From IMG/VR virus record IMGVR_UViG_3300031998_000006, positions 128,001 to 192,000 of that record: DNA of 64,000 nucleotides; one strand, 5' to 3'. The DNA comes from a virus. Lineage: Duplodnaviria; Caudoviricetes. Under the pieces are notes generated by a model. It did no database searches. It was not told the DNA's origin and saw nothing but the letters and a program-made list of their open reading frames with translations. This document shows positions 7,731-30,096 of this stretch, piece by piece (the first letter of the stretch is position 1; each line of letters opens with the position of its first letter). A program made the position numbers and the translations under genes.

Positions 7731-7814
7731 TGGGCAAGGCGGGACTTGAACCCGCAAGGCGATTAAGCCAACAAATTTTGAGTCTGCCGTGTCTGCCAAT
7801 TCCACCACTTGCCC
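7731..7814 (-). tRNA. tRNA-Leu(CAA)
   Basis: GGGCAAG acceptor, loop CT-CAA-AA, long variable arm, GGTTCAAGTCC T-arm. Confidence 0.9.
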
Positions 7815-11166: not shown

Positions 11167-11256
11167 CGGAGATTCCGTTCCTACTCCATACGTGGGCAAA
11201 ACACTCGATTGCCCCGTGGGAAATTCCACCGCTGGAGTCCTACAGAACAGAGTTAG

Positions 11257-11332
11257 TAGCGGGGGCGGGACTTGAACGCCGCGACATCCGGGTTATGAAC
11301 CCGACGAGATACACCAACTTCTCCACCCCGCA
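11257..11332 (-). tRNA. tRNA-fMet(CAT)
   Basis: 1:72 mismatch, three G:C pairs in the anticodon stem, CAT anticodon; promoter TTGACA-17-TATATT at 11338-11366. Confidence 0.85.
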
Positions 11333-16111: not shown

Positions 16112-16147
16112 TGCATTTGTTCCTTTTAAGGGTTAATCGGGGGTTAA

Positions 16148-16222
16148 TGGACGGACTGGGACTTGAACCCAGAAACCTACTGGTTATGAGTCAGTTGCTC
16201 TAACCTATTGAGCTATCCGTCC
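16148..16222 (-). tRNA. tRNA with CAT anticodon (Ile2 or elongator Met)
   Basis: GGACGGA acceptor, TAGCTCA D-arm, CT-CAT-AA loop, GGTTCAAGTCC T-arm. Confidence 0.88.
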
Positions 16223-16242
16223 ATTCTGTATATACAGACTTG

Positions 16243-17927: not shown

Positions 17928-20615
17928 CTATGCCGGTTGCGGTTCAAACTTCTTAATCCAGTTGGGGTCTGCGATTCCGTTATCTCCGAGAGCGCCAACA
18001 TCCGTCATCTTCGCCCAAGAGCCACCTACTTCGGATGCTTCGGCTTCAATGACGAGCGGAACGCAAATCCACGGAAATTCCTTGCTGACTCGCTTAACTC
18101 CGTTGTTGTAAACGATTTGAGCCAGCTTGTCCTCTTCGCCCTCCTTAACGAGAGCAATGATAGCATCGTGAATCTGCCCGATAATTACGGACTGCAAACC
18201 GGCTTTCTTGATGTCCTGCAAGTCATAGGTAAGAGCCTTGAGCAAGATATGGAATGCAGAACCCTGTATGCATCGGTTGGTTGCTTCCGTGTAGCCCATA
18301 GGTCCCCAACAACGGAAACCCGTGTAGGACTGCACATAGCCATAGTCCTGATACCTCTGCCATTCCGTTCCTCGCCAAGCATTGTAAACCTTGAATCGTT
18401 CGTTCCAGAAGATGTCATCGCCCTTCTTGACATGGGCTTCCCATTTCTCGTAGGTCTTGATTCCGCAATCCTTGGCAAGATGCTCCTTGGTGTAGGCTGG
18501 CATATTGTTCCACATATTACGGGCGCAAGACTTGTAGGATGCACCGTAGAAGGAACTGAATACATAGCCAGCCTTGATGGTGGAGCGTTCGTCCTTCGTA
18601 AGTTCATCGGGCTTGCGGATGTACATATCGCAAGCGGTGTCACGGTGCATATCCGAAGCGGGGTTTTGCAGATAGTGAATCATCTGCGGGTCGTGATGAT
18701 AACTTGCGGACACCATCACTTCCAAGGACTTGTAGTCCATTTCCATGAACCTATATCCCGGAGGGGCTACGAAGAGGGTGCGGAGCATCTTCTTCATTTC
18801 TTTATCTCTTTTGGGGATATTTTGAAAATTCGGGGAGTCGGCAGAGGAACGGTAGGTTCGGGGGCCGGCTTCGCCATCACCACCGGCACCAGTAGAAATG
18901 TTGAAGAACGGACGGATGAGATAGGACTTCTTGTCCTCATCGTACACGGCTTCTCGCTCGTAGCCCTTCAAGAAATCCTTGACCTTGGACCACCTTCTCA
19001 TACCGAGGATAGCCTTACAGAACGGAGTACCCAACTTTTCAAGAGTATCGCCAGTAGCATCTTCCTTTGCGGATGGCGGTTTCAGCTTGCAGATTTTGAA
19101 GAGGACTTCCACAATCTGCTTGTTTGAGCCGGGGTTGAAGGTTTCTCCGGGGTGTAATTTCGACCATTCCTTGACTTCATCGGAAGCCATCACTTCCGCT
19201 TCGGATTCCTTGTACTTGCTCTCAAGGGTATTCCGCAATTCGTCAATCTTGCCAAAGTTAATGGGCAGACCCTCACTCTGCACACGGGCAAGAGCATCCA
19301 TCCCTTGCATAAAGAATCGGAAGGGCTTCTCCAAGCCAGCCATCTGTTCGGACTGGATGTCACGGAGGGCGATTGTGAAGATGGAGTCCTCCCCGCAATA
19401 GTAGGTAAGTTCGCCCTTGGGAACGCCTACACCACCCTTCAATAGATTGAAGGAGTTCTTGCTATCCTTATCCTCTCCGTCCATCATAGTAGAAAGGAAC
19501 TTGTCCACCTTGTTATCGTAACCGATTACCCCGAACTCGCAATATGTATGGAGCTTCAAGCCGATTTTCTGGTTGTTGTCGATGACGTGAGCGCCCAAGC
19601 AAGTGTCCCAGCTCCAGTTCGTGGGCCACTCCGTCTTCCCGTTGTGCCATCCGGCACGGAAGCGAGTCCAACAGGCTTCAAAGTCAGCCTTGTGAGCAAC
19701 AAGCCCGATGGTATCGTGATGGGTTAATCTGTACCAAGCATCCGTGAGTTCCTTGCATTCGCCATCCCACAGAAATCCGATGGCGTGGTATTCGCCATCC
19801 TTGCGGTAGCCAACAGATGCAGCCTTGATTTCGTGTCCGTCACGGTGGGGTTTAAGACCCGTGGTTTCATAGTCGATGGCTACATCGTGATAACCTTCGG
19901 GAGATTTGTCAAGTTGATTAGTTTCGCCCCACTCAATAATTTCGTCAACCCATTTTGCCGCTTCCTTCGCATCCCCCGTGGTTCGGATGTCCGATGGAAT
20001 CTTCGGGAACGGAGTGTCCACCATCTTCCAAGCGGCACGGATATGCTGGGAGAAGTACATATAGGGGCAGTGGTCATCCTTCTGCCAAGTCAAAAATTCG
20101 GGAGAGTAAGTAGGGCAAATCCAACAGTTGTAGTGGCGGTCCGGAATCCTTTTTCCATAGAAATCGGAGGGCTTCGTGTCCTTGATTCTGCCAGACATCC
20201 TACTCCAGATGAGGGCGTGTACTGCGGTAGGACCCATCGGGATGATTACCTTCGGCTTGAGTTCCGCAATGAGTCTATTCAATCGTTCGCTACAGCAATC
20301 CGTAGCCGGTTCCTTGTCCTTGATTCCATAACAAGGAAAGATGTAGCCGAACCAAGCGGATTCCAAAAAATCATTCGGCAGACCCCTCTTGCCCTGCAAG
20401 TCCCAGAGTCTATCGTACATCTTGTGAAGGAAGACCGTTTCACTATCGTTACCCTCGTTGCCGCGAGGATGGTCACAGAGAATCAAAACCTTGTCCTTGC
20501 CCTTACCGGCAAACACGGAATCCTTGCCGGACTGGTCAAGACCGCAAGCGGCACATCCTACAAGTTTCAGCTTCTTGGGTGGTGCTTGCATAGTAGGAAT
20601 CTTAAAGAAACCCAT
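17928..20615 (-). CDS. polA: family A DNA polymerase with N-terminal UDG-like domain and 3'-5' exonuclease
   Basis: DYETTG exonuclease, SSADSPNFQNIP, DYKSLE motif A, R..IK....SSFYG motif B, QIHD motif C; likely start MGFFKIP. Confidence 0.93.
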   Translation of the reverse strand: MGFFKIPTMQAPPKKLKLVGCAACGLDQSGKDSVFAGKGKDKVLILCDHPRGNEGNDSETVFLHKMYDRLWDLQGKRGLPNDFLESAWFGYIFPCYGIKDKEPATDCCSERLNRLIAELKPKVIIPMGPTAVHALIWSRMSGRIKDTKPSDFYGKRIPDRHYNCWICPTYSPEFLTWQKDDHCPYMYFSQHIRAAWKMVDTPFPKIPSDIRTTGDAKEAAKWVDEIIEWGETNQLDKSPEGYHDVAIDYETTGLKPHRDGHEIKAASVGYRKDGEYHAIGFLWDGECKELTDAWYRLTHHDTIGLVAHKADFEACWTRFRAGWHNGKTEWPTNWSWDTCLGAHVIDNNQKIGLKLHTYCEFGVIGYDNKVDKFLSTMMDGEDKDSKNSFNLLKGGVGVPKGELTYYCGEDSIFTIALRDIQSEQMAGLEKPFRFFMQGMDALARVQSEGLPINFGKIDELRNTLESKYKESEAEVMASDEVKEWSKLHPGETFNPGSNKQIVEVLFKICKLKPPSAKEDATGDTLEKLGTPFCKAILGMRRWSKVKDFLKGYEREAVYDEDKKSYLIRPFFNISTGAGGDGEAGPRTYRSSADSPNFQNIPKRDKEMKKMLRTLFVAPPGYRFMEMDYKSLEVMVSASYHHDPQMIHYLQNPASDMHRDTACDMYIRKPDELTKDERSTIKAGYVFSSFYGASYKSCARNMWNNMPAYTKEHLAKDCGIKTYEKWEAHVKKGDDIFWNERFKVYNAWRGTEWQRYQDYGYVQSYTGFRCWGPMGYTEATNRCIQGSAFHILLKALTYDLQDIKKAGLQSVIIGQIHDAIIALVKEGEEDKLAQIVYNNGVKRVSKEFPWICVPLVIEAEASEVGGSWAKMTDVGALGDNGIADPNWIKKFEPQPA

Positions 20616-20681
20616 AAATCTTTTCCGTAAACTAAATGGTTGAACTTTCCATAAGGAATATAGGCGGTTGCTAGAAGATGG

Positions 20682-20726
20682 AAAAGGGGTGCTTCGGAAT
20701 AGAGGTAGAAGACTCCGAAACACCCC
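20682..20726 (-). terminator. intrinsic terminator between the clamp gene and polA
   Basis: GGGGTGTTTCGGA/TCCGAAGCACCCC followed by TTTT. Confidence 0.75.
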
Positions 20727-20749: not shown

Positions 20750-21820
20750 TTACTTTGCTACACCACAGACCATCTGTGTATAGCTACCGGACTGGAAGAC
20801 AAGTGCCGGGTTGCCATCAACGTAGGCGAGAAGGAAGTCCATAACCTTGTTGGATGCTTCCAAGAGGAACGCGGTGTCCACCCAGAACTGGAAGCCCTGC
20901 GGGTCTTCTTCAAGCGGACTATCCCACGGGATAGTTTCGGATGCTTCGCCACCAGCCTTTTCAGCGTGAAGACCGAGTTCATCTTTGTTGAAGGTAAGTT
21001 CCACAAGACGGGCGCTCTTGGAGTCAGCACCAGAAGCGAGGATAGCTACACGAGAAACCGCTTCTGTAATGTTGGACGGAAGACGACCCTTGGCGATGAC
21101 ATTTACCGTAGGAATAATTTCAAGGAAGCCACGGCAAGTTTCATACGGGTAGGTGGTATCGTCCTTTCGCTTTGCGGAGAAGACCGTACCATCTTCATAC
21201 TTGAGATGCAACCAAGCCCCATTGACACAATACTTTTTCGGAGTACCAATCTTGAGAGCGTCATTGAACACGGTGTCGTCCACGAAGAAGGAATCCATCT
21301 TTTCCTTCAAGGTGTTGATGCAGACGCGGTTGGAGTCGATTTCAAAGATAGCGGAAGCATCTCCACAATCGTTGACGGCAACACCACGATAGGATTCCTT
21401 GTTGCCTGCGAGGGCGCAAAGACGGACGCCATCGAGGAAGTCTTCGGAGAGGTCTGCATATTCAAGGGCTGCGGTGTTGAGAGCCTTGACCGCTTCCATA
21501 ACCTTCGACGAGTCGAGCAAGGACATAGAAGCCTTTGTACGCCCAGCCTTGAGCTTAACCTTGTTGTCCACAACTTCGATGGCAACCATCACATCGGACA
21601 TACGGGCAACGAGATTATAGAAGTCCGCACCCTTGACGGAGAACGAGAGGTTTTCCGTATTGCACGGAGCGGAAACGGCTACTTCGCCATTATAGGAACT
21701 GACGGAAGCACCCGTGAAGAGAAGCTGGTCTGCACCGTCGATTACGGTGCTACCGGATTCCACACCCGGCATAACTTTCTTGAGCGATTCGATGAGTTTT
21801 GCTTTTTCTACTTGGACCAT
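20750..21820 (-). CDS. DNA sliding clamp (beta/DnaN-like) 1
   Basis: 356 aa; AVSRVAILA, VDTAFLLEA pattern; adjacent to polA. Confidence 0.7.
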   Translation of the reverse strand: MVQVEKAKLIESLKKVMPGVESGSTVIDGADQLLFTGASVSSYNGEVAVSAPCNTENLSFSVKGADFYNLVARMSDVMVAIEVVDNKVKLKAGRTKASMSLLDSSKVMEAVKALNTAALEYADLSEDFLDGVRLCALAGNKESYRGVAVNDCGDASAIFEIDSNRVCINTLKEKMDSFFVDDTVFNDALKIGTPKKYCVNGAWLHLKYEDGTVFSAKRKDDTTYPYETCRGFLEIIPTVNVIAKGRLPSNITEAVSRVAILASGADSKSARLVELTFNKDELGLHAEKAGGEASETIPWDSPLEEDPQGFQFWVDTAFLLEASNKVMDFLLAYVDGNPALVFQSGSYTQMVCGVAK

Positions 21821-21826
21821 TGTTAG

Positions 21827-22147
21827 CTATCCTTGTTGTTGATTGATGATGGGTTGTTCGTCCTGCACGGGTTCAGCCTTATCGCCAAACCAATCTTTAG
21901 GCAAGAACGAGAAGAAATGCTTGATGACCTCCACCGTCCAGCCGTTGCCTAGGACTCTGTATCTTTGAGAGTCGGACATTTCGTCCCAGTTGTACCATAC
22001 TGGGATTGTCTGGAGTCTGGCACATTCCGTGGGGGTAAGTCTGCGGATTCCGAGGACTCGCACCTTCTTTCCGTTGAGCATAATGATGCGAGAATCGTGA
22101 TTTTCGTCTTTCGGCTTTGCCGTAGCTTTCAAATCAAAAAATGGCAT
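21827..22147 (-). CDS. C5-cytosine methyltransferase C-terminal subunit (motifs IX-X)
   Basis: IRRLTPTECARLQTIP (IX), QRYRVLGNGWTVEVIKHFF (X); own SD and promoter. Confidence 0.92.
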   Translation of the reverse strand: MPFFDLKATAKPKDENHDSRIIMLNGKKVRVLGIRRLTPTECARLQTIPVWYNWDEMSDSQRYRVLGNGWTVEVIKHFFSFLPKDWFGDKAEPVQDEQPIINQQQG

Positions 22148-22170
22148 AGTTTGTTTCCCTTTTGTTATTC

Positions 22171-22189
22171 ATATAATTCCAACCTAGTC
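22171..22189 (-). promoter_or_regulatory. class II promoter-like motif before the MTase C-subunit
   Basis: GACTAG-GTTGGAAT-TATAT. Confidence 0.65.
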
Positions 22190-22369
22190 AATCTCTTCAA
22201 TCTCCATTACATAGGTTCGCTTTGTAAATCCTTCCACCCCACCTTGATGTTGTGTGGGATAATCGCCACTCGTAAGACAACAGCCCTTGACCCTTGCCGG
22301 GTTGTGGCACTTGTCTATACCGAAATATCCACTACTCGTGTGAACGCTTGTCTTCAAATACTTCTTCAT
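22184..22369 (-). CDS. TRD-like cassette T17
   Basis: KGCCLTSGDYP...RTYVMEIEEID. Confidence 0.75.
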   Translation of the reverse strand: MKKYLKTSVHTSSGYFGIDKCHNPARVKGCCLTSGDYPTQHQGGVEGFTKRTYVMEIEEID

Positions 22370-22514
22370 ATTCCAATATGTGCAAAAGCCCGTAAGAGTT
22401 TGTCCTGTGTGCCATCTCCGTAGTGAGTGCCGGAGCCTTGTTGTTTTCGGGTGGCTTGTCGATACCGCATCTGTACCCCACCATAACCGGCTTATACATC
22501 CGCAACCCCCTCAT
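22332..22514 (-). CDS. TRD-like cassette T16
   Basis: NKAPALTTEMAH...HILEYEE. Confidence 0.8.
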   Translation of the reverse strand: MRGLRMYKPVMVGYRCGIDKPPENNKAPALTTEMAHRTNSYGLLHILEYEEVFEDKRSHE

Positions 22515-22659
22515 ACACCAAAATCAATATCCTTCCATTCAGTTGCGAGGACAATGCCGGTACAAGACCACCTTCGGGGTCGTAAATCCTATCCTGCTGA
22601 TAGGGTTGCGTACCGCCATTGCTCTTGTTCAGCATACCTATTTGCTTAATCGTCCGCAT
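22492..22659 (-). CDS. TRD-like cassette T15
   Basis: Hand translation MRTIKQIGMLNKSNGGTQPYQQDRIYDPEGGLVPALSSQLNGRILILVYEGVADV. Confidence 0.85.
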   Translation of the reverse strand: MRTIKQIGMLNKSNGGTQPYQQDRIYDPEGGLVPALSSQLNGRILILVYEGVADV

Positions 22660-22840
22660 CTGCACAAACCAAAACTAGATTATCCTTCAAGACCGTAGTG
22701 AGCGGATTGCTCTTGTCCGTGACCGGAATATACTCTTGCATCTTCGACATACCCCCGAAAGCACGAGAATGGGCATACTCGTACTCCGAGCGATGGAGCT
22801 TTCCGTACTCGCTCCTGCGGGGGTGCAAGATGGCTAACAT
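22646..22840 (-). CDS. TRD-like cassette T14
   Basis: DKSNPLTTVLKDNLVL. Confidence 0.85.
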   Translation of the reverse strand: MLAILHPRRSEYGKLHRSEYEYAHSRAFGGMSKMQEYIPVTDKSNPLTTVLKDNLVLVCADADD

Positions 22841-23013
22841 TCCTCATACTCCAGAACATAGTTATCCTTATCAACGGTACTCAAAGTGTTGGATTTCCCA
22901 GGCACGAAACATAGTTCGAGCATCTGCACCCACCTTCCGTGGCTGTGGCTCTTGCGGTCGCCCGGATTTTCGGGATTCCGTCCTCTACTTGCTATAATCG
23001 TCCTGCTCTTCAT
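22834..23013 (-). CDS. TRD-like cassette T13
   Basis: ASRGRNPENPGDR...GKSNTLSTVDKDNYVLEYEEC. Confidence 0.85.
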   Translation of the reverse strand: MKSRTIIASRGRNPENPGDRKSHSHGRWVQMLELCFVPGKSNTLSTVDKDNYVLEYEEC

Positions 23014-23149
23014 AAACCAAAATATAGGGAACATCAAAATGGTTTCCGGGGATGCTTCCGTCTATTCGCTGAATGACACAAGGGGATTTCTCCTGTGTTT
23101 CGGGAAACTTGATTCCACGGCTATAGGCTGCATACACTAACTTCTTCAT
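22985..23149 (-). CDS. TRD-like cassette T12
   Basis: Hand translation MKKLVYAAYSRGIKFPETQEKSPCVIQRIDGSIPGNHFDVPYILVYEEQDDYSK. Confidence 0.75.
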   Translation of the reverse strand: MKKLVYAAYSRGIKFPETQEKSPCVIQRIDGSIPGNHFDVPYILVYEEQDDYSK

Positions 23150-23288
23150 ACTCAACAATCAGCGGTTGCCCCGCACTGTTCCACCCCTTCGCATACTCGC
23201 TCTGTAGGCACAGAGTCTTGTACGGAGGGTCTGGAACTTTCAGGTCCTTGTGACGAATGCTATCAATAGTAACATATAATCTTATCAT
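23121..23288 (-). CDS. TRD-like cassette T11
   Basis: Hand translation MIRLYVTIDSIRHKDLKVPDPPYKTLCLQSEYAKGWNSAGQPLIVEYEEVSVCSL. Confidence 0.8.
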   Translation of the reverse strand: MIRLYVTIDSIRHKDLKVPDPPYKTLCLQSEYAKGWNSAGQPLIVEYEEVSVCSL

Positions 23289-23289
23289 A

Positions 23290-23600
23290 GACTACAATTC
23301 TGTCTTTAACGTTTATCATATATCATAATAGAGTTGGAAGCATAATATCCCATATTCTCTATCACATCCAGTTTAACGGTCACAATTCCATATTTGTTGT
23401 AATCGTTTACTATTTTAAACCTATTCCCATAGTTTTCTTCTAACCCCTACAATCCATACATTTCTTACCTAGTCACATCGAAACAACCTTACATATCATA
23501 ATCAACCATACACCATAGGTTATCAAAATACCCATCTTGAACTTGTACGGAAGGTTTGGTACTTTTAAGTCCTTGTGGCGGTTGCTGTCTATCGTTACAT
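23290..23600 (-). pseudogene. 3' remnant of IS-disrupted cassette T10 plus decayed AT-rich sequence
   Basis: VTIDSNRHKDLKVPNLPYK directly after the IS right end, paralogous to T11; stop-rich sequence further on. Confidence 0.7.
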
Positions 23601-24969
23601 TTGAACTATCCATGCACTAAAGATGCATGGGACTCCCCTAACTTACACGGACTGTTGTCCGTGATGGCTTCGGGCATTCTCGTTTCATTGCTTCCACGAG
23701 CATTTTTAATGACATCGGTAGGTTCCCTTCCTATTGTCCGTTTAACTCCTAGATACAGAATGTTCTGTGCGGCGTTCACATCCCTATCGTGCTGTGCATT
23801 GCATACGGGGCAAACCCACTGCTTTATTCCTAACACAACTTGAGGGTTGATGTTACCGCAATGATGGCACGTCTTGGATGTGTTGTTTGCAGGTACTTTC
23901 ATAAGGTTCGTCTTGTAGGCTATGTATTGACGAAGCAATCCAAACCCCTGGTCGCCGATGGTCTTCCCGTGTTCTAACTCGGATGCCATTTTGTTCAAAT
24001 TGACATCTTCCACGAACACATACTGATACTTGTTGGCTAACTCACGGCTTACCTTGTGGAGCCAATCCTTGCGTTGGTTGACTACCTTTTCGTGTAGCCG
24101 TGCAACTTTTAGTTTAGCTTTCTGGTAGCGGTGGGATTGGGTTTCCTTGCCTTTGACGAACCGGTTTGACTGAATCTGCTGATACTTTTCCAACTGCAAT
24201 TCCTTGCGCTTCAAAAATCTAGGACACTTGATTTTCGTGCCATTGCTCAAAGTAAGGAATGAATCGGAGTTGCAGTTCCAGTCTATGCCTACGGCTTTTC
24301 CATTCTGTATCTTGTTCTGTTCTTCTTTAATATCTACACAAATCGCTACATACCATTTTCCGCTTGCGGACCGTTTAAAGGTAATAGTTTTCCACTTGCC
24401 CTTGCAGAACTGTGAAGATGCACAGATGGGTATGTAGCCAAGCCTACGAGAAACAAATAATCCGTGAGAATTGATGTGGGCTACATTTCCTTGAATAGTG
24501 TACCTAAAGGAAGCCTTGTTGTTCTTCTTTCTCTTGAAGGTAGGGGGTTGCATAGGCTTTCCCTTGCGAATACCCTTGAGGGATGCAAAGAAATTCGTGT
24601 ATGCTCCACGAACATCGCACCATACCTGTCCTAGGGGTATTGAATCCACATCCTTAATCCATTCAAGTGCTTCGGGCTTGAATTTTGCAAATGTGGGCTT
24701 GTAGCCCTCTATGGGCATTTTGTGGTCTTTGTTCTTGTTCTCAACTACAAGGTTGTAATACAGACGGCAAAGACCAAGTGTTTTGTTGAAGATAGACACT
24801 TGTTCCTTGGTTGGATAGATTCTGTATTCGTATGCCTTGTTCATTTCTTATGTAAGACTTAAACCTACACTAAATATACATAATATTTTATTGATTTGCA
24901 ATAGGTGTTTAAATAATCTTGGTGCTTTCTCATAGCACTAAAAGTCGTGAGTATTCTCGTTACACTTCT
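23601..24969 (-). mobile_element. non-autonomous IS200/IS605-family element 2
   Basis: Preceded by TTAT; ends with hairpin CCCATGCATCTTTAGTGCATGG then ATAGTTCAA; removal restores MKKLYVTIDS. Confidence 0.88.
23606..24844 (-). CDS. tnpB: TnpB RNA-guided nuclease
   Basis: Close paralogue of 4937-6169; intact RuvC D/E/D and zinc finger. Confidence 0.93.
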   Translation of the reverse strand: MNKAYEYRIYPTKEQVSIFNKTLGLCRLYYNLVVENKNKDHKMPIEGYKPTFAKFKPEALEWIKDVDSIPLGQVWCDVRGAYTNFFASLKGIRKGKPMQPPTFKRKKNNKASFRYTIQGNVAHINSHGLFVSRRLGYIPICASSQFCKGKWKTITFKRSASGKWYVAICVDIKEEQNKIQNGKAVGIDWNCNSDSFLTLSNGTKIKCPRFLKRKELQLEKYQQIQSNRFVKGKETQSHRYQKAKLKVARLHEKVVNQRKDWLHKVSRELANKYQYVFVEDVNLNKMASELEHGKTIGDQGFGLLRQYIAYKTNLMKVPANNTSKTCHHCGNINPQVVLGIKQWVCPVCNAQHDRDVNAAQNILYLGVKRTIGREPTDVIKNARGSNETRMPEAITDNSPCKLGESHASLVHG

Positions 24970-25136
24970 ATAACTTCTTCATATTCCAAGATAAAGTTTT
25001 GATGCCACCACGAATTGATAGTTAGGGCATTGTTGCACTTCCCGTTGTTCCAGATGAAGAACGGACCCTTGTCCGCATTCTCTAGCCCGTGGGTGGCGGT
25101 AAATCCTATTCTATTTCTTCTGTGAGCATTATCCAT
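24960..25136 (-). CDS. TRD-like cassette T9
   Basis: Hand translation ending NGKCNNALTINSWWHQNFILEYEEVIEV; start uncertain. Confidence 0.7.
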   Translation of the reverse strand: MDNAHRRNRIGFTATHGLENADKGPFFIWNNGKCNNALTINSWWHQNFILEYEEVIEV

Positions 25137-25288
25137 TGTATTCCGTTCGTCCTCAAGGCATCCGTCTTGAAATTGAAAGGCATAGGTACATAGATAGTTC
25201 CATACTCCCCGGCTATAGGTTCTCCGGGTGTGTTAGCCACGAACACTCTCAAGCCCCTAGACACCTTGTTCAATCCCAACTTACGCAT
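25106..25288 (-). CDS. TRD-like cassette T8
   Basis: FKTDALRTNGIQWIMLTEEIE; TAATG-coupled start. Confidence 0.75.
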   Translation of the reverse strand: MRKLGLNKVSRGLRVFVANTPGEPIAGEYGTIYVPMPFNFKTDALRTNGIQWIMLTEEIE

Positions 25289-25467
25289 TACACTTCCTCA
25301 AAAATCAAGATGCACGGCTGACCGCATCCGTCGTTCCTCGCACGGTTCAACAGAGTGATGCACTTGCCATTATTTTCCGTGCCACGCAAACTAAATTGAA
25401 CCATACCATCCCAGCCAGTGATAGTACCTATCTGGTATTTTGTGTTAGCCGTGTTCATTCGTTGCAT
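25288..25467 (-). CDS. TRD-like cassette T7
   Basis: Hand translation ending NGKCITLLNRARNDGCGQPCILIFEEV. Confidence 0.82.
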   Translation of the reverse strand: MQRMNTANTKYQIGTITGWDGMVQFSLRGTENNGKCITLLNRARNDGCGQPCILIFEEV

Positions 25468-25631
25468 TGCTCAAGTTCCATCACAAAAGGTCTAGTTCCA
25501 TTACCATCCCTACCACCCGTGTAGCTTGCCGTGAAGCATCCCAGCTTACTTTCAGCCGTAGGGGGCAGAATCTTCGTCTTGCCATAAAAACAAGGATAGC
25601 AAATTCTCTTCTCTACTCCACCTCTTCGCAT
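25455..25631 (-). CDS. TRD-like cassette T6
   Basis: Hand translation ending SKLGCFTASYTGGRDGNGTRPFVMELEQCNE. Confidence 0.78.
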   Translation of the reverse strand: MRRGGVEKRICYPCFYGKTKILPPTAESKLGCFTASYTGGRDGNGTRPFVMELEQCNE

Positions 25632-25789
25632 ATCATCACTCTAGTATCAAACTCGAACGAAGTCACTATTCCGCTTGCGGCATATCGTGTAGTAAGGCTA
25701 TACGATTTCTCCTGCTCCTTCTGGACTATCAGCCCGTGCAACCTAGTTGTCACGATAGCCACGTTATGCAGTTTGCCCGATTTCTTCAT
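25613..25789 (-). CDS. TRD-like cassette T5
   Basis: Hand translation ending EKSYSLTTRYAASGIVTSFEFDTRVMICEEVE. Confidence 0.8.
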   Translation of the reverse strand: MKKSGKLHNVAIVTTRLHGLIVQKEQEKSYSLTTRYAASGIVTSFEFDTRVMICEEVE

Positions 25790-25946
25790 ATTCCAAGATT
25801 ACCGCTTCGATTGACTTTGTATGTGTATAAATGCGATGCCCCGCTAGGAGCGTATAGGACTTGCTCTGCTTGAGTGCAACCCCGTAGAACTTCTCCTTGT
25901 GGGGATGGATGCAAGCAGCCACGATTACTCTCTTACACTTCCTCAT
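25764..25946 (-). CDS. TRD-like cassette T4
   Basis: MRKCKRV...SKSYTLLAGH...VILEYEEIGQTA. Confidence 0.8.
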   Translation of the reverse strand: MRKCKRVIVAACIHPHKEKFYGVALKQSKSYTLLAGHRIYTHTKSIEAVILEYEEIGQTA

Positions 25947-26106
25947 ATTCCATAATAAAGGGGGTCTGTGTGTGCTGAACGATGCCACAGAGATAACGGC
26001 TGATGACCGCATAGGTCCTCACGGATTCAGCCGGTCCGTACTCGTTCAAGTGCATCGGACCGTCCTTATATTCCCTTGTTGGGTAGATTAGGTAAGATTT
26101 CTTCAT
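25933..26106 (-). CDS. TRD-like cassette T3
   Basis: Hand translation MKKSYLIYPT...RTYAVISRYLCGIVQHTQTPFIMEYEEV. Confidence 0.75.
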   Translation of the reverse strand: MKKSYLIYPTREYKDGPMHLNEYGPAESVRTYAVISRYLCGIVQHTQTPFIMEYEEV

Positions 26107-26242
26107 AGTCAAGTATGTATGCCCTAGTTCCGAACCCGTCGAAGTTGTGGCTATAGGTTGCCGTCAGGCAATTAACCTTCGTCAATGCGGTCACGGCATT
26201 CTTCTCATAAACCGACGGATAGATTACAGCCCTTCGCTTCAT
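26066..26242 (-). CDS. TRD-like cassette T2
   Basis: Hand translation MKRRAVIYPS...KVNCLTATYSHNFDGFGTRAYILDYEE. Confidence 0.82.
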   Translation of the reverse strand: MKRRAVIYPSVYEKNAVTALTKVNCLTATYSHNFDGFGTRAYILDYEEILPNLPNKGI

Positions 26243-26397
26243 TTAACTTCCTCATATTCAAGGATGTAGGCGCGATTGCGGTCATTGCCATAACCCTTGT
26301 GGTAGGTCTTGAGCAACGGGAAGCATTTCCGCTGGAACTCGTCCGGCACCGTAATCTGCCAATCTCTAATGGACGGGAAGCACACCGCCCTTTTCAT
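26239..26397 (-). CDS. TRD-like cassette T1
   Basis: Hand translation MKRAVCFPSIRDWQITVPDEFQRKCFPLLKTYHKGYGNDRNRAYILEYEEVK; TAATG-coupled to the MTase stop. Confidence 0.82.
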   Translation of the reverse strand: MKRAVCFPSIRDWQITVPDEFQRKCFPLLKTYHKGYGNDRNRAYILEYEEVK

Positions 26398-28133
26398 TAT
26401 GCACCCTTGATTCCGTTGGCAAGGAGCTTGTCAACCACCTCGTCCTTGAGGTAGTATTTCTTGTCCACCTCATCTTCGAGGATGTCCTGCAAGAAGATGC
26501 CCTTGTCAGCCGGTTGCGGAATATCGGGAACTACGATACGGAGAAGACCCTGGGTCTTCGTGCGGATGTTAGTCCAGTAGATTCGTCTGCGGTTCTGTGC
26601 GGACACGAGAGCGGAGTTCACGTGGACTCCCGGAATACCGATGGCTTTTGTAAGGACATCCTCCCACTTTTCGCCCATTTCCACATTTTCCAGGAAGAAG
26701 AATACATTCGGGTTCGTTTCACGGACTTCGTGAAGGATTCGCATATACTCCCAGAATAGGAAGGATTCGCCATCAAACTGGAAGCCTTGTTCCTTGAGTT
26801 CAAGGTAGCGTTCAAGGGTGTAAATCTCTTCGTTAGTGGTGGTGTTCATACCATTGCGGCGACCGGCAAAACTGAAATTCGTGCAATTTTTTACGACCAC
26901 ATTTTCAACCGTATAGGAGTGGTCTTCGTCCACCGTGATATTGTAAACGAGTTGTTCGCCAATGTGGGTGTATTTCTTGACCCCAAACCAAATCTTGTCC
27001 TCATCATACTGCACCTTGCCCTTGACACCCTTGGCATAGTGTATGACATACTGCGGATGCTGATTGACGGTTCTTCCGTCGATTTCCCAAGTAGCACCCC
27101 TATCATACAGATAGATGTTGGAGTGAACCTTTTCCACATCAAGGATAAGGCGTTGCAGACCGAGGGCGAGATTGTGGCTGACCGTGCAAATCTGCACCTT
27201 GTTTCCCTTGATAGAACCATCGCCAGAAAGATAACCTTCAAGGAAGGACTTCTTGATTTCATCGGAAGAGTTGAAGATTTCTTCGGAGATGAACTTGTCC
27301 ATTGCATTGCAACCGCAATTCTTCTCCGCAAGTTCCACAAGTTTCTTGTTGGAGAACACGATTCGGTAGGTGGACGTGCTATGCGGATAGCAAGAATACT
27401 GCAAGGCGGCAAGGTGGGCTTTCACGTCGTCCAACTTCTTGCTTCCAATGGACAAGATAAGCTGCCAAGCACGAGAACCCTTATGCTTGCCATCAAAACG
27501 CAAGTCTTTTCGGGTATGACCATCAGCTAGATACCTACCAAGAACCCAGGCTTCTTCCAAGGTAATGTCCAAGCCATCGCCATCCACCTTCGGGCGGTTG
27601 CTACAGATGTAGTAATCGTTCTTCAACTTTTCAGCTTCAACCCAGTCAGCCTTACCGAGTTCCAATCTACGAGTACGGGCATCGTTCCTCCATGCAAAGG
27701 ACTTCTTTTTAGCCCAGAACTTGTGGTCAGCGGTACACACGATGGGTGCGGAACACTGGGTCTGTACCTCAAAGGTTTCAGCCAGCTTGCATCCGTAATC
27801 CACCACGGGACGCCAACGGTTCTTGTGGGTAAGCACCAGTTCGCCAAGACGGATGTCTTCAATGTTCTTGTAGCCTTGCTTGGTAAGGACTTTAGTACCG
27901 GCTGCGAAGCACGGAGAACCGCCAATCAAAAGGTCGATGTGTCCGAGCTTTCGGGCATCAACTTCCGTGACGGACCCTAATTGAATAGTGTCAGGGAAAT
28001 TCTTCTGTGTCTGTGCAATGGCGTGCTTGTCAATTTCCGATGCATAGTATTTGTCAATCTTGGCTCCGAGTTCCGTGAGAGCGATTCTCCCGCACGACAT
28101 ACCGTCGAACAAACTCAATACTGTAATACCCAT
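26397..28133 (-). CDS. C5-cytosine methyltransferase N-terminal catalytic subunit (motifs I-VIII), intein-containing
   Basis: LSLFDGMSCG (I), GGSP/C (IV), FLENV (VI), QNRRRIYW (VIII); stops after LQDILEDEVDKKYYL; no TRD or motifs IX-X. Confidence 0.93.
   Translation of the reverse strand: MGITVLSLFDGMSCGRIALTELGAKIDKYYASEIDKHAIAQTQKNFPDTIQLGSVTEVDARKLGHIDLLIGGSPCFAAGTKVLTKQGYKNIEDIRLGELVLTHKNRWRPVVDYGCKLAETFEVQTQCSAPIVCTADHKFWAKKKSFAWRNDARTRRLELGKADWVEAEKLKNDYYICSNRPKVDGDGLDITLEEAWVLGRYLADGHTRKDLRFDGKHKGSRAWQLILSIGSKKLDDVKAHLAALQYSCYPHSTSTYRIVFSNKKLVELAEKNCGCNAMDKFISEEIFNSSDEIKKSFLEGYLSGDGSIKGNKVQICTVSHNLALGLQRLILDVEKVHSNIYLYDRGATWEIDGRTVNQHPQYVIHYAKGVKGKVQYDEDKIWFGVKKYTHIGEQLVYNITVDEDHSYTVENVVVKNCTNFSFAGRRNGMNTTTNEEIYTLERYLELKEQGFQFDGESFLFWEYMRILHEVRETNPNVFFFLENVEMGEKWEDVLTKAIGIPGVHVNSALVSAQNRRRIYWTNIRTKTQGLLRIVVPDIPQPADKGIFLQDILEDEVDKKYYLKDEVVDKLLANGIKGA
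26886..27911 (-). mobile_element. 342-aa intein with LAGLIDADG endonuclease at the catalytic Pro-Cys
   Basis: Starts CFAAGT, contains TADH, LGRYLADG and FLEGYLSGDG, ends VVKN/C. Confidence 0.92.
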
Positions 28134-28168: not shown

Positions 28169-28187
28169 ATATAGTTCCACCCTAGTC
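28169..28187 (-). promoter_or_regulatory. class II promoter-like motif before the MTase N-subunit
   Basis: GACTAG-GGTGGAAC-TATAT. Confidence 0.65.
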
Positions 28188-28346
28188 CATCTCCACGTAG
28201 TCCATGACCCACTGCCGTTCGTGGGAGTGGCTACCGAAATACTTGTCATAGCCCTTTATGAAGTATTTAGCCTTGTTTTCTGTGGGGGGTGGTACGAACA
28301 CCCCGTTCTGCCAAGTAGGTTCTACCACGATGGACTTCTTCCGCAT
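28182..28346 (-). CDS. orphan TRD-like cassette
   Basis: Hand translation MRKKSIVVEPTWQNGVFVPPPTENKAKYFIKGYDKYFGSHSHERQWVMDYVEMD. Confidence 0.65.
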   Translation of the reverse strand: MRKKSIVVEPTWQNGVFVPPPTENKAKYFIKGYDKYFGSHSHERQWVMDYVEMD

Positions 28347-28352
28347 CCGGTG

Positions 28353-29834
28353 CTATCTCCTGCTTCCGTATCTTCCACGGCTACCCGTCCGTCTGCCGGT
28401 CTGTCGCTTGGGCATATCTTCATCCCCATCGCCATCCCATTGTTCCTCCTGACTCATATCCACACGGGAAAGGAGTTCGCATTCGAGGTAGGGTCTGCCG
28501 ATGGCAAGGCAACTCGTGCATACCACGGAGTCCTGCACGGGAGCGCCATCACGGGTGGTGTTGCAAGCTAGACGAGTGATGCCCCTCTTCCTTTCGGTGG
28601 GGGTGTGGTTAATGGTAATCATCTTCGTGACGTGGGCTACCTTTCGGATGTCTTCGGAAATTTGATTTTCGGCGGCATCTTGTTCGCCACCCACAGTGGC
28701 ACGACCCGTCTGCGAAACGGTAGCAAGCATACACTTGCGGGATTGAGCCAAGCCACGGAGGGCTTTCCAGCACTTGTTGATTTTCTCGCGTTCATCGTTG
28801 CCGGGACCCAAGTCCATAATATCCGCATAGTCCACACAGATGACTTCGGGTACAAAGCCCTCATAGACTTCCATATCCTTGAGTTCGGCTTCAAGACCAC
28901 GGACCGTGAGAGTGCCGGTAGGGAATGTACGGAGTTCCAAGTGACCCCTACGGCTAATCTTTCGGAATGCCTTTTGAGCCTTCTCGATGCTCTCAACACT
29001 TGCATCCACCCTCTCCGTGGGTTGTCTATCGTCCACGATTCGGGCTGTGCCACCATTGTCATACTCAAATGTGGGCCACGCCACCTCTTCGCCATATCTG
29101 GACTTGCCCGTAAGCATCTGCCAGAATCTACGGACAACTTGCTTTTCGGACATTTCAAGGGAAACATAGAGAACACACTTGCCCTGCAAGGCGGCTTGAG
29201 TGGCGATGGTCATAAGCCACCAAGTCTTACCGCTCTTCGGAGGACCAATGACCGCAATGAAATCTTCACGGATGAACGGACCGATGACACTACCGAGAAC
29301 ACCCGGCATAGTGAAAATCTCTTCCTCATCGTTGTCGAAAGCACTTGAGATTGTACCGGCATCCCTAAAAAGGTCAACCACCTGTGCCTGACGGATGTCC
29401 GGTTTCGTGAAGTCCGAAACCGCGTGCAAACCTCCCGAAACATCGTTGTTCTGCACGGCACGGTTAATCTTTTCGGCTAGGAGGACCAAGGCTCTCTTTT
29501 GAAAATACTTGATGGCATTTTCCGTGGCAACCGCTTCATTGGAAGGAGTCCATTCTTCGGAGCAGGTGTCCAAGAATGCCTTGACCATCTCCGCATCGGC
29601 TTCCTTGAGGTCGGAAGCCTTGTGCATATAAATATCGCTGATTGTCTTCTGCGGGGCATCCCCATACTTGTCATAGAAGGTAAGAACCCAGTCGGCAACA
29701 ATCTTGCCCATCGTGCTTTCAAACAGGATGGCATCGCAACTCTTCCTACACTTGGAGATGAGTGCGGTGGACATAATCATATTGGACAAGATGATTCGCT
29801 CTTCCGAAAATTCAATCTTCTCTCGTCTTAACAT
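28353..29834 (-). CDS. DnaB-like replicative helicase
   Basis: GPPKSGKT, YVSLEMS, VDYADIM, TVSQ. Confidence 0.9.
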   Translation of the reverse strand: MLRREKIEFSEERIILSNMIMSTALISKCRKSCDAILFESTMGKIVADWVLTFYDKYGDAPQKTISDIYMHKASDLKEADAEMVKAFLDTCSEEWTPSNEAVATENAIKYFQKRALVLLAEKINRAVQNNDVSGGLHAVSDFTKPDIRQAQVVDLFRDAGTISSAFDNDEEEIFTMPGVLGSVIGPFIREDFIAVIGPPKSGKTWWLMTIATQAALQGKCVLYVSLEMSEKQVVRRFWQMLTGKSRYGEEVAWPTFEYDNGGTARIVDDRQPTERVDASVESIEKAQKAFRKISRRGHLELRTFPTGTLTVRGLEAELKDMEVYEGFVPEVICVDYADIMDLGPGNDEREKINKCWKALRGLAQSRKCMLATVSQTGRATVGGEQDAAENQISEDIRKVAHVTKMITINHTPTERKRGITRLACNTTRDGAPVQDSVVCTSCLAIGRPYLECELLSRVDMSQEEQWDGDGDEDMPKRQTGRRTGSRGRYGSRR

Positions 29835-29907: not shown

Positions 29908-30096
29908 TCACAGTTCCTCATAGAGCAGAACCTTAATGCGGTTGCCAGAACCCTCGCTTGCCTTTAGAGCGTAGCACTTGCCACGGGGGTCAACCACATT
30001 CTGCTCGAAATGCCATCCGTACATAGTCATCCCCTTCAAGGGAGTAAGTATCTGGCTTACCCCGCTGAACGGCATATCCTTGTCACGTTCCGTCAT
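29908..30096 (-). CDS. orphan TRD-like cassette
   Basis: FEQNVVDPRGKCYALKASEGSGNRIKVLLYEEL. Confidence 0.75.
   Translation of the reverse strand: MTERDKDMPFSGVSQILTPLKGMTMYGWHFEQNVVDPRGKCYALKASEGSGNRIKVLLYEEL

Follow-up and report, generated by a model that had tools for sequence, protein, structure and literature searches.

A split phage C5-cytosine methyltransferase accompanied by an array of separately encoded candidate target-recognition peptides

The window analyzed here is a 64,000-nucleotide (nt) stretch of DNA comprising bases 128001-192000 of the 215,310-nt virus record IMGVR_UViG_3300031998_000006, complete by CheckV, which represents a cattle-gut phage of 215 kb. A replication module on the minus strand of this window has the order U2, DnaB-like helicase, U1, N gene, 16 small open reading frames (ORFs), C gene, a 356-amino-acid (aa) ORF and DNA polymerase (Table 1). 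The N and C genes encode the two parts of a split C5-cytosine methyltransferase core, and the small ORFs, together with U1 and U2, encode peptides that probably serve as stand-alone target-recognition domains (TRDs) to this core.

The first-pass annotation, made from the sequence alone, had proposed that the N gene covers motifs I-VIII and ends where the variable region begins, with motifs IX-X found in a separate gene, and both assignments agreed with the Pfam matches and, for the N gene, with colinearity to a related phage locus (L001). The N protein matched DNA_methylase (PF00145, E 5.8e-20) with residues 4-75 corresponding to profile positions 2-71, and it also matched Hint_2, LAGLIDADG_3 and Intein_splicing, with DNA_methylase matches on both sides of the intein. 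The large-domain motifs I, IV (PC), VI (ENV) and VIII (QxRxR) of DNA (cytosine-5) methyltransferases were all present, as FDGMSCG at residue 9, GGSP and C on either side of the intein, ENV at residue 482 and QNRRR (motif VIII) at residue 513. The protein stops 65 residues past motif VIII, at the point where its relatives begin to vary. The intein starts at C75 and ends at the N416-C417 junction, with a Cys both at position 1 and at +1, and the flanking exteins of 74 and 162 aa were colinear with the intein-free, 236-aa N subunit of L001, having 63/74 and 128/161 identical residues (81%). The C gene matched PF00145 with E 9.7e-9, residues 22-79 corresponding to positions 261-319 of the 324 in the profile, and its product contains motif IX (RxLTPxE) and motif X (GNG/A), with RRLTPTECARLQ and LGNGW being invariant in the alignment of C subunits. 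Neither chain carries a TRD next to motif VIII or IX, with only about 30 aa preceding motif IX on the C subunit. In the 215-kb genome, the N gene gave the sole match to the N-terminal part of PF00145, and no gene beyond N and C matched this family.

Between the N and C genes lie 15 intact ORFs of 52-64 aa (T1-T9 and T11-T16) plus T10, 16 in all. An earlier count had given 16 intact ORFs and one broken by an insertion sequence (IS); the sizes given at that time hold, as does the insertion, but the total is 16 rather than 17, and T10 has lost only its first codons and is nearly intact. Two extra members that this annotation had not included, U1 and U2, bring the total to 18. When the genome was scanned with hidden Markov models (HMMs) of the peptide groups, 18 ORFs were found, being the 16 of the array with U1 and U2; these HMMs were built including the array sequences, so that the scan shows only the lack of further copies. 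The peptides share an architecture of a short hydrophobic N-terminal strand, a variable middle and a C-terminal h-h-x-Y-E-E followed by a variable tail, and many of those in the window begin with M-K/R-K/R and end with EYEE. The core strings listed in the first-pass annotation (KSNTLST, KSNPLTT, KAPALTT, KVNCLTA, KSYSLTT and KCITLLN) and its tail strings (ILEYEE, ILDYEE, IMEYEE, IVEYEE, ILVYEE and VMEIEE) could all be located. A loose form of the tail pattern occurred in 22 of 3358 short stop-to-stop ORFs genome-wide, with 15 of these 22 found within this 8-kb stretch and all on the minus strand, a clustering that is not due to chance. From the N gene to T16, and apart from T9 and T10 that are separated by the IS, adjacent ORFs overlap by 1-41 nt and always lie in another frame, with +1 and +2 steps mixed. 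The ATG of the next gene is often placed within GAATATGAAGAA, which codes for the EYEE of the preceding peptide, and around GAATATGAAGAAG the junctions carry two families of repeats, one of 25 nt with six copies (at least 68% identity to a reference copy) and one of 28 nt with five copies (at least 67% identity).

Table 1. Features of the methyltransferase locus and its surroundings in the window. Features run from the beginning to the end of the minus-strand module. Related loci are given by their L numbers and their peptides as p; pN/pS is the ratio of non-synonymous to synonymous substitutions per site, and hhalign values are probabilities.
Feature	Position	Strand	Size	Remarks
U2	29908-30096	minus	62 aa	upstream of helicase gene; 76% identical to L002 p13
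DnaB-like helicase	28353-29834	minus	about 1.5 kb	Pfam DnaB_C; between U2 and U1
U1	28182-28346	minus	54 aa	just upstream of N gene; 49% identical to L002 p1
N subunit of C5-cytosine methyltransferase	26397-28133	minus	578-aa precursor	motifs I-VIII and conserved start of variable region
Intein (Hint + LAGLIDADG)	26886-27911	minus	342 aa	residues 75-416 of N; between GGSP and the catalytic Cys, motif IV
T1	26239-26397	minus	52 aa	ATG overlaps N stop by 1 nt; ortholog L002 p2, pN/pS 0.36
T2	26066-26242	minus	58 aa	ortholog L004 p1, 51% identical, pN/pS 0.38
T3	25933-26106	minus	57 aa	hhalign 78-79% to T2/T6/T10 group and a relatives' group
T4	25764-25946	minus	60 aa	from ATG inside T3 EYEE codons; end architecture only, no homologue found
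T5	25613-25789	minus	58 aa	ortholog L002 p6, 48% over 31 aa, pN/pS 0.25
T6	25455-25631	minus	58 aa	T2 paralogue, BLAST E 1.5e-9
T7	25288-25467	minus	59 aa	orthologs L001 p6, L002 p9
T8	25106-25288	minus	60 aa	orthologs L001 p4, L002 p8, L082 p2
T9	24960-25136	minus	58 aa	82% identical to L002 p15
Insert with tnpB (23606-24844, IS605-type OrfB/TnpB)	23275-24968	minus	1694 nt	Pfam OrfB_IS605, Cas12f1-like_TNB, HTH_OrfB_IS605
T10 start and its copy inside the insert	23217-23294 and 23542-23619		78 nt	74% identical
T10	23121-23288	minus		first codons replaced by insert; T2/T6 group member
T11	22985-23149	minus	54 aa	end architecture only; weak hhalign (50%) to T15
T12	22834-23013	minus	59 aa	BLAST E 3.7e-8 to residues 298-341 of 593-aa tandem-TRD L010
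T13	22646-22840	minus	64 aa	BLAST E 4.9e-9 to residues 274-328 of 386-aa L039, directly before motif IX (336)
T14	22492-22659	minus	55 aa	BLAST E 2.8e-9 to residues 94-137 of 195-aa L041 C part, directly before motif IX (138)
T15	22332-22514	minus	60 aa	ortholog L002 p17, 67% identical, pN/pS 0.27
T16	22184-22369	minus	61 aa	orthologs L002 p7, L095 p5
C subunit	21827-22147	minus	106 aa	basic hairpin (RIIMLNGKKVRVLG), then motifs IX and X
356-aa ORF	20750-21820	minus	356 aa	no Pfam match; next after C gene
Family-A DNA polymerase	17928-20723	minus	931 aa	end of replication module
tRNA genes: Leu-CAA and two Met-CAT	7731-7814, 11256-11332, 16147-16223	minus

The same three-part layout was found in at least four other phage records, namely L001 (five peptides and one more by the helicase), L002 (17 peptides), L004 (one peptide and a fusion) and G001/L095 (six peptides aligned, seven candidate small ORFs), with orthologous peptide types being 44-85% identical between phages. 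Exact copies of window peptides and of the C subunit were found on 2-10 contigs each in JGI, ENA and Logan, mostly with the same lengths; thus the T8 sequence was present on nine contigs and in a 15-member cluster where every member had 60 aa, and that of the C subunit on ten contigs and in a 21-member cluster with 106 aa in 11 of the 15 members listed. Contigs of the sequencing runs X3 and X10, both from other studies, span the array with substitutions only and no indels, and as neighbouring ORFs are never in the same frame, their fusion would need an indel. The pN/pS values were 0.09-0.49 in 22 out of 22 ortholog pairs, with synonymous sites being saturated, and the peptides are under purifying selection over their whole length, including the TL-like core. 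An artefact of assembly or sequencing, or a decaying pseudogene of a tandem-TRD enzyme, might be suspected from the unusual look of the locus, but such a reading was excluded by the recurrence of one and the same ORF structure in five phage records from different samples, by identical peptides being called in many assemblies, by the independent contigs without indels, by pN/pS well below 1 and by a placement of stops and starts that is systematic. The claim made before that these are genuine separate genes is hereby borne out.

Separate translation of each peptide also has to be weighed against programmed frameshifting or read-through, by which the ORFs would be joined into one or a few long multispecific chains, as could be imagined from the conserved junction sequences of the 25-nt and 28-nt families and from the existence of single-chain tandem relatives. 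However, the shifts needed would mix +1 and +2 over overlaps of 1-41 nt with no uniform slip site, about 17 consecutive recoding events would be required, and each unit has its own ATG as well as a variable tail between EYEE and the stop codon. Moreover, U2 lies beyond the 1.5-kb helicase gene, U1 lies upstream of the N gene, and in L001 some neighbouring peptide genes are separated by non-coding gaps in place of overlaps. We consider this explanation very improbable. The overlaps in changing frames instead suggest translational coupling within one operon, and a conserved stop/start junction of about 20 nt (ATCTTGGAATATGAAGAAGT-like) may serve translational coupling and at the same time be a site where cassettes are exchanged by recombination. 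As L001 keeps the Y-E-E tails in genes without such overlap, the tails appear to be selected at the protein level.

We compared the 18 window peptides by BLAST with 53 unique relatives, whereby four of them (T7, T12, T13 and T14) matched units located between motifs VIII and IX, at E values of 1.7e-7 to 2.8e-9. The T7 match was to the variable regions of both single-chain and two-part relatives (BLAST E 1.7e-7, HMM E 8e-16), and the T12 type was found inside full-length methyltransferases at five of six metagenome loci, with the sixth holding a free peptide from a close relative. Using tblastn, U2 matched inside annotated C5-methyltransferases in five phage records, as in Lactococcus phage D7138 where the match covers residues 280-321 of a 408-aa enzyme having motif VIII at 158 and motif IX at 357. 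The T9 type occurs joined end to end with a C subunit in P0073 (137 aa), and together with another TRD and the C subunit in one chain in P0071, P0072 (98-member cluster) and L004, whereas the C subunit of L012 (111 aa) has the T14 type fused to motifs IX-X. The HMM of the T2/T6/T10 group gave a weak match (E 5e-4) to the variable region of L042. Homology to TRDs or a natural fusion was in this manner seen for nine of the 18 peptides, being strong for T7, T12, T13, T14, U2 and T9 and weak for T2, T6 and T10, which sustains the earlier proposal of the peptides as TRD homologues. In profile-profile comparison (hhalign), U1, T1 and T3 further showed probabilities of 78-98% for a link with the T2/T6/T10 and T7 groups; U1 reached 95-98% with the T1 group and with a group of relatives, and T1 95% with the T2/T6/T10 group. 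No ortholog of T3 was found in the loci examined. The TRD link of T8 comes solely through fusion, in P0070 (116 aa), where a T8-type and a T9-type unit are joined into a two-TRD peptide without catalytic motifs, so that fusion of cassettes occurs besides their splitting.

Several searches with single peptides gave no further leads. In a set of 1.84 billion representatives, the credible homologues of T16 were only five proteins of 57-82 aa, and a scan of viral contigs with T16 gave 27 pattern matches of which none was confirmed. Pfam searches with eight peptides returned no family and one chance-level GidB match (E 0.18), while PDB sequence searches with T14 and with a T12/T13 profile had no matches at E up to 1. 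For T8, the ESM Atlas gave scores of at most 0.78, below the chance range, with a poor Atlas model (predicted local distance difference test, pLDDT, 0.41).

To place the locus among its relatives, we used the C subunit, for which IMG/VR holds 422 relatives; the best 80 were examined and motif IX was recognized in 79. Of these 79, 42 were single chains, with lengths of 307-734 aa, and 23 were C parts in which motif IX is preceded by 80 aa or more, namely two-part enzymes such as L005 and some fragments; five more were short C subunits and nine were unclear. Among the single chains, visual inspection of L010 (593 aa) gave about six units in the stretch from motif VIII to motif IX, all having a TL-like core and ending in a hydrophobic strand. 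An evolutionary series could be discerned among the relatives from comparison of their sequences, apparently running from the tandem-TRD single chain, via the two-part enzyme (N plus TRDs-IX-X), to full TRD fission, with occasional re-fusions. At nine loci (L048, L051-L054, L056, L057, L062 and L067), the ORF with motifs IX-X begins 6-19 residues before motif IX, lacking an ATG or meeting the contig edge, and these may represent further variants of the methylase that are split, frameshifted or interrupted by introns.

The order of the cassettes differs between phages. T16 is last in the window array and its type seventh in L002, the order of T7 and T8 is swapped between phages, U2 lies outside of the window array while being thirteenth in that of L002, and U1 is found before the N gene in the window and after it in L002. 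In L081/L082 the U2- and T9-type genes adjoin the helicase gene, apart from the core genes, with L082 also having a T8-type gene there, and for G001/L095 the U2- and T9-type genes are likewise found apart, beside the helicase (L081). This shuffling, together with the separation of U2 from the core by the helicase gene, suggests that the peptides act in trans, as the first-pass annotation had held. We consider it about evenly balanced whether the peptides should be seen as a plug-and-play library of some 18 interchangeable modules of about 55 residues with two universal docking strands, where the order is shuffled and cassettes have been gained, lost, fused and moved.

With regard to docking, a basic segment before motif IX, GKKV[KRH]x[VL], was found at four of the 79 loci (L001-L004). 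Free ORFs with the tail pattern (at least two, upstream) were present at three of these four, the fourth being cut by a contig end, and at none of the 75 others, so that the basic GKKVRVLG segment co-occurs with free peptides among the loci compared. We also predicted the structure of a complex between the N subunit, the C subunit and peptide p5 (T12 type) of L001, using alignments of our own, with the L001 N subunit being 81% identical to that of the window. The model scored 0.87, compared to 0.08 for the best of three controls, and since the job comprised three chains with our own alignments the calibration is only rough; 58 of 80 solved complexes and 2 of 110 mismatched pairs attained this mark. 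The runs agreed in at least 91% of contacts, with partner pLDDT of at least 74. In this model the peptide residues 52-58 (a Y-V-L-E-Y-E strand) are placed antiparallel to residues 28-36 of the C subunit (VRVLGIRRL), while the interface also lists peptide residues 2-7, 9 and 29-46 as well as residues 166, 170-174 (motif VIII loop) and 227-235 (C-terminal tail) of the N subunit. Judging from the fold, the N-terminal strand of the peptide would lie on the tail of the N subunit and its core beside the motif VIII loop. An acidic tail that docks on the basic strand before motif IX had been suggested earlier, and it is where the model places it. An AlphaFold2 model of the P0073 fusion was too poor for use (mean pLDDT 55.2, predicted template modelling score 0.52).

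Acidic ends and basic starts could also pair between peptides, the end of one binding to the start of the next in a head-to-tail, non-covalent chain that would recreate the tandem multi-TRD enzyme as one large multispecific complex. This arrangement would fit with the M-K/R-K/R starts and EYEE ends of many window peptides, with single-chain relatives holding the same TRD types in tandem and with the natural two-TRD peptide P0070 (T8 and T9 types). The basic N-termini are, however, not kept in the non-overlapping genes of L001, where the peptides start with MSW, MDR, MQR, MKN and MSE, and basic starts therefore look like a by-product of having an ATG inside the EYEE codons. A chain is moreover at odds with the shuffled cassette order, with the co-occurrence of acidic tails and the basic hairpin of the C subunit, and with the model, where one peptide is enough to occupy the space between N and C and both of its ends are engaged. 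We hold a head-to-tail chain to be unlikely.

What we propose in its place is a three-component, multispecific C5-methyltransferase, with a core of N and C subunits and about 18 stand-alone TRD peptides acting in trans in an anti-restriction role, for which, based on sequence comparison and the predicted complex, we estimate a probability of roughly 0.7. The N subunit would become active once the intein has spliced out, whereupon any one of the about 18 separately translated peptides of 52-64 aa would complete the core as its TRD. The hydrophobic strand at the peptide N-terminus would dock on the C-terminal tail of the N subunit, the h-h-x-Y-E-E strand would pair antiparallel with the basic VRVLGIRRL leading into motif IX, and the variable middle with its TL-like core would presumably read the DNA. 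Overlapping starts and stops would couple translation, so that all peptides may be made together with the core from one operon of the replication module. The assembly would be non-covalent, probably with one peptide per core and a distinct specificity for each peptide, and if different peptide-core complexes methylate different sequences, the phage DNA would be pre-protected against many host restriction enzymes.

A number of observations weigh against this proposal. Five of the 18 peptides (T4, T5, T11, T15 and T16) had no sequence link to embedded TRDs, their connection to the set being position and end architecture; for T5 and T15, no embedded homologue was found either in the group-HMM search of the relatives or by tblastn of GenBank phages. 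Searches of very large databases for longer proteins related to T8 or T16 gave no credible homologue, and tblastn of T8, T15, T1, T5 and T2 against GenBank phages gave no match. The EYEE codons also carry the next ATG and a purine-rich stretch, so that their conservation could be partly translational, and, as P0070-P0074 are fused forms, the lineage can do without free-standing peptides. The complex was modelled with the proteins of L001 and not with the window's own chains, and as C5-methyltransferase structures are already solved, its passing score may reflect memory of the fold and not binding. Finally, the C subunit retains what appears to be the last TRD strand, RIIML, for which reason N and C might be active alone, with peptides only modulating that activity.

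The residual strand and the five peptides lacking a detectable TRD homologue would also agree with peptides that derive from TRDs and no longer recognize DNA, having become regulators or inhibitors of the core, decoys of host factors or spare cassettes for recombination into the C gene; the C-gene fusions in relatives are what would be expected of cassettes that had been recombined in. Such a loss of function fits poorly, however, with purifying selection over the whole peptide including the TL-like core in all 22 pairs, and with an N plus C core that has no TRD and only some 30 residues before motif IX. The model also sets the peptide core beside the motif VIII loop, the usual place of a TRD, and when DNA rearrangement or cassette switching was sought in contigs of four runs, joints were seen only at the IS (X3) and at the intein (X5 and X19), with none elsewhere inside the array. 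This alternative we regard as quite improbable for the set, though it may hold for individual peptides.

C5-methyltransferases are classically single-chain enzymes with the TRD as an internal domain. In the enzymes of phages SPR, phi3T, rho11 and H2, one core is combined with several TRDs that contain TL; every TRD presumably accounts for one specificity, and together they would counter many restriction systems. The window enzyme belongs with these as a phage C5-methyltransferase, and its single-chain relatives share their layout exactly, with L010 and L064 having several TRDs in tandem within one polypeptide; it differs in that each TRD is its own gene with start and stop, as 16+2 separate ORFs in changing frames, and in having a core that consists of two chains. 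With 16 + 2, the units are presumably more numerous than in the Bacillus phage enzymes. There is a likeness also to the HsdS subunits of Type I systems, where the specificity resides on its own subunit, which docks on a methylase core and can be replaced by the product of another S gene to change the specificity. HsdS, which serves N6-adenine (gamma-class) HsdM dimers, has about 400 aa, including two TRDs and coiled coils, and its variants arise by DNA inversion or recombination. The two systems show no known homology, and in the window enzyme the genes of about 18 subunits stand next to each other and are probably all expressed.

Turning to reports that were covered in selected passages, temperate phages of Bacillus array multiple TRDs in a single polypeptide (PMC12707154), and M.AquI has a large subunit with motifs I-VIII and a small one with motifs IX-X, being split in the variable region (PMC3404938). 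The position of the split is alike in the window enzyme, and two-part relatives such as L005 resemble M.AquI. In M.AquI, however, the two subunits share the variable region and together carry the whole TRD, whereas here the core has almost none of that region, the TRD is on neither core subunit and a third, exchangeable chain is added. M.EcoHK31I likewise consists of two polypeptides, with motif IX on the small chain (PMC3404938), and these are the only two natural two-chain C5-methyltransferases cited in the passages covered of that article (PMC3404938). A short, separately encoded piece thus completes a C5-methyltransferase also in M.EcoHK31I, but the TRD stays on its large chain with a single specificity, while the small chains found here are many and constitute the TRDs. 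For M.HhaI, M.SssI and M.MpeI, inactive fragments cut in the variable region are described to reassemble into active enzyme (PMC3404938, PMC3439449, PMC5944983). Those systems differ from the present one in being artificial and two-piece, with the TRD on one of the fragments. We know of no three-piece C5-methyltransferase with a free TRD that has been either made or found. A search of full-text literature gave no description of free-standing TRD subunits of a C5-methyltransferase, with older subscription papers and REBASE falling outside that search, and in the passages covered of a comparative genomics study of jumbo phages, cytosine methylases are mentioned and the term TRD is absent (PMC7824862). 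The components are all of known kinds, including the C5-methyltransferase fold, TRDs and both split and multispecific phage enzymes, while the three-component architecture with a cassette library appears, from the literature searched, to be new.

If the proposal is true, this would be the first specificity subunit for the C5-methyltransferase class, comparable to HsdS, with a free TRD of about 55 residues completing a split core, and 16-18 specificities would be stacked in one phage without the need for a giant protein. It would define a minimal autonomous TRD with its docking elements and make testable the old question of how one catalytic centre works with many TRDs. Should the mode of docking be general, it would also account for the way in which the TRDs of tandem multispecific enzymes are presented singly. 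The small, modular and natural parts could also give a minimal scaffold for programmable, targeted or multiplexed writers of 5-methylcytosine.

With regard to the genome as a whole, the stretch was present, wholly or in part, in runs of 12 studies, mostly labelled bovine gut metagenome and of which one is possibly the source study; gaps in contig cover were not taken as evidence. Megablast of the whole locus against GenBank phages gave no match. The sole lead to a host was a relative of the TnpB protein, 75% identical, in a Clostridia metagenome-assembled genome from buffalo caecum, which is too weak for naming a host. A scan for promoters and terminators gave ten terminator-like sites (7.6 +/- 3.2 in shuffled sequences) and 22 promoter-like sites (12.4 +/- 3.7), with no usable boundary of an operon. 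Contigs of run X19, an RNA library, covered parts of the C gene, T13, T12 and the T1/T2 region and were not counted as transcription. The family-A DNA polymerase has an N-terminal domain of the uracil-DNA-glycosylase superfamily (Pfam UDG, E 2.7e-5), and three tRNA genes lie on the minus strand of the window (Table 1).

The intein of the N subunit has the features of an intein with homing endonuclease, and intein-free alleles are found in L001, L002 and L004. In G001/L095, a shorter Hint insert occupies the same motif IV site, giving an N protein of 369 aa, and contigs of runs X5 and X19 have joints that skip about the intein stretch. Directly upstream of the N gene, two relatives carry a conserved ORF of 241-261 aa (L002:5659-6444 and L095:174-899) with beginnings MDITGKVHCLFEQSG and MEIKGKVHCLFEQSG, and the window has U1 at that place. 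In two relatives (L095:3341-4150 and P0074), motifs IX and X of the C subunit are separated by an insertion of about 160-220 aa, which has no Pfam match and no obvious intein ends.

The insert between T9 and T10 was identified as a TnpB element of the IS200/IS605 type both through its domains and through its polymorphism, as an 11-kb contig of X3 joins position 23274 to 24969 with the insert absent. In this insert-free allele T10 is intact with 55 aa, and its ATG lies inside the preceding EYEE codons like those of its neighbours. Just past the tnpB stop codon, the insert holds a 78-nt copy of the T10 start, which suggests that it arrived by recombination with another phage that had the IS at the T9/T10 junction. 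In L081, a tnpB gene likewise follows a T9-type gene.

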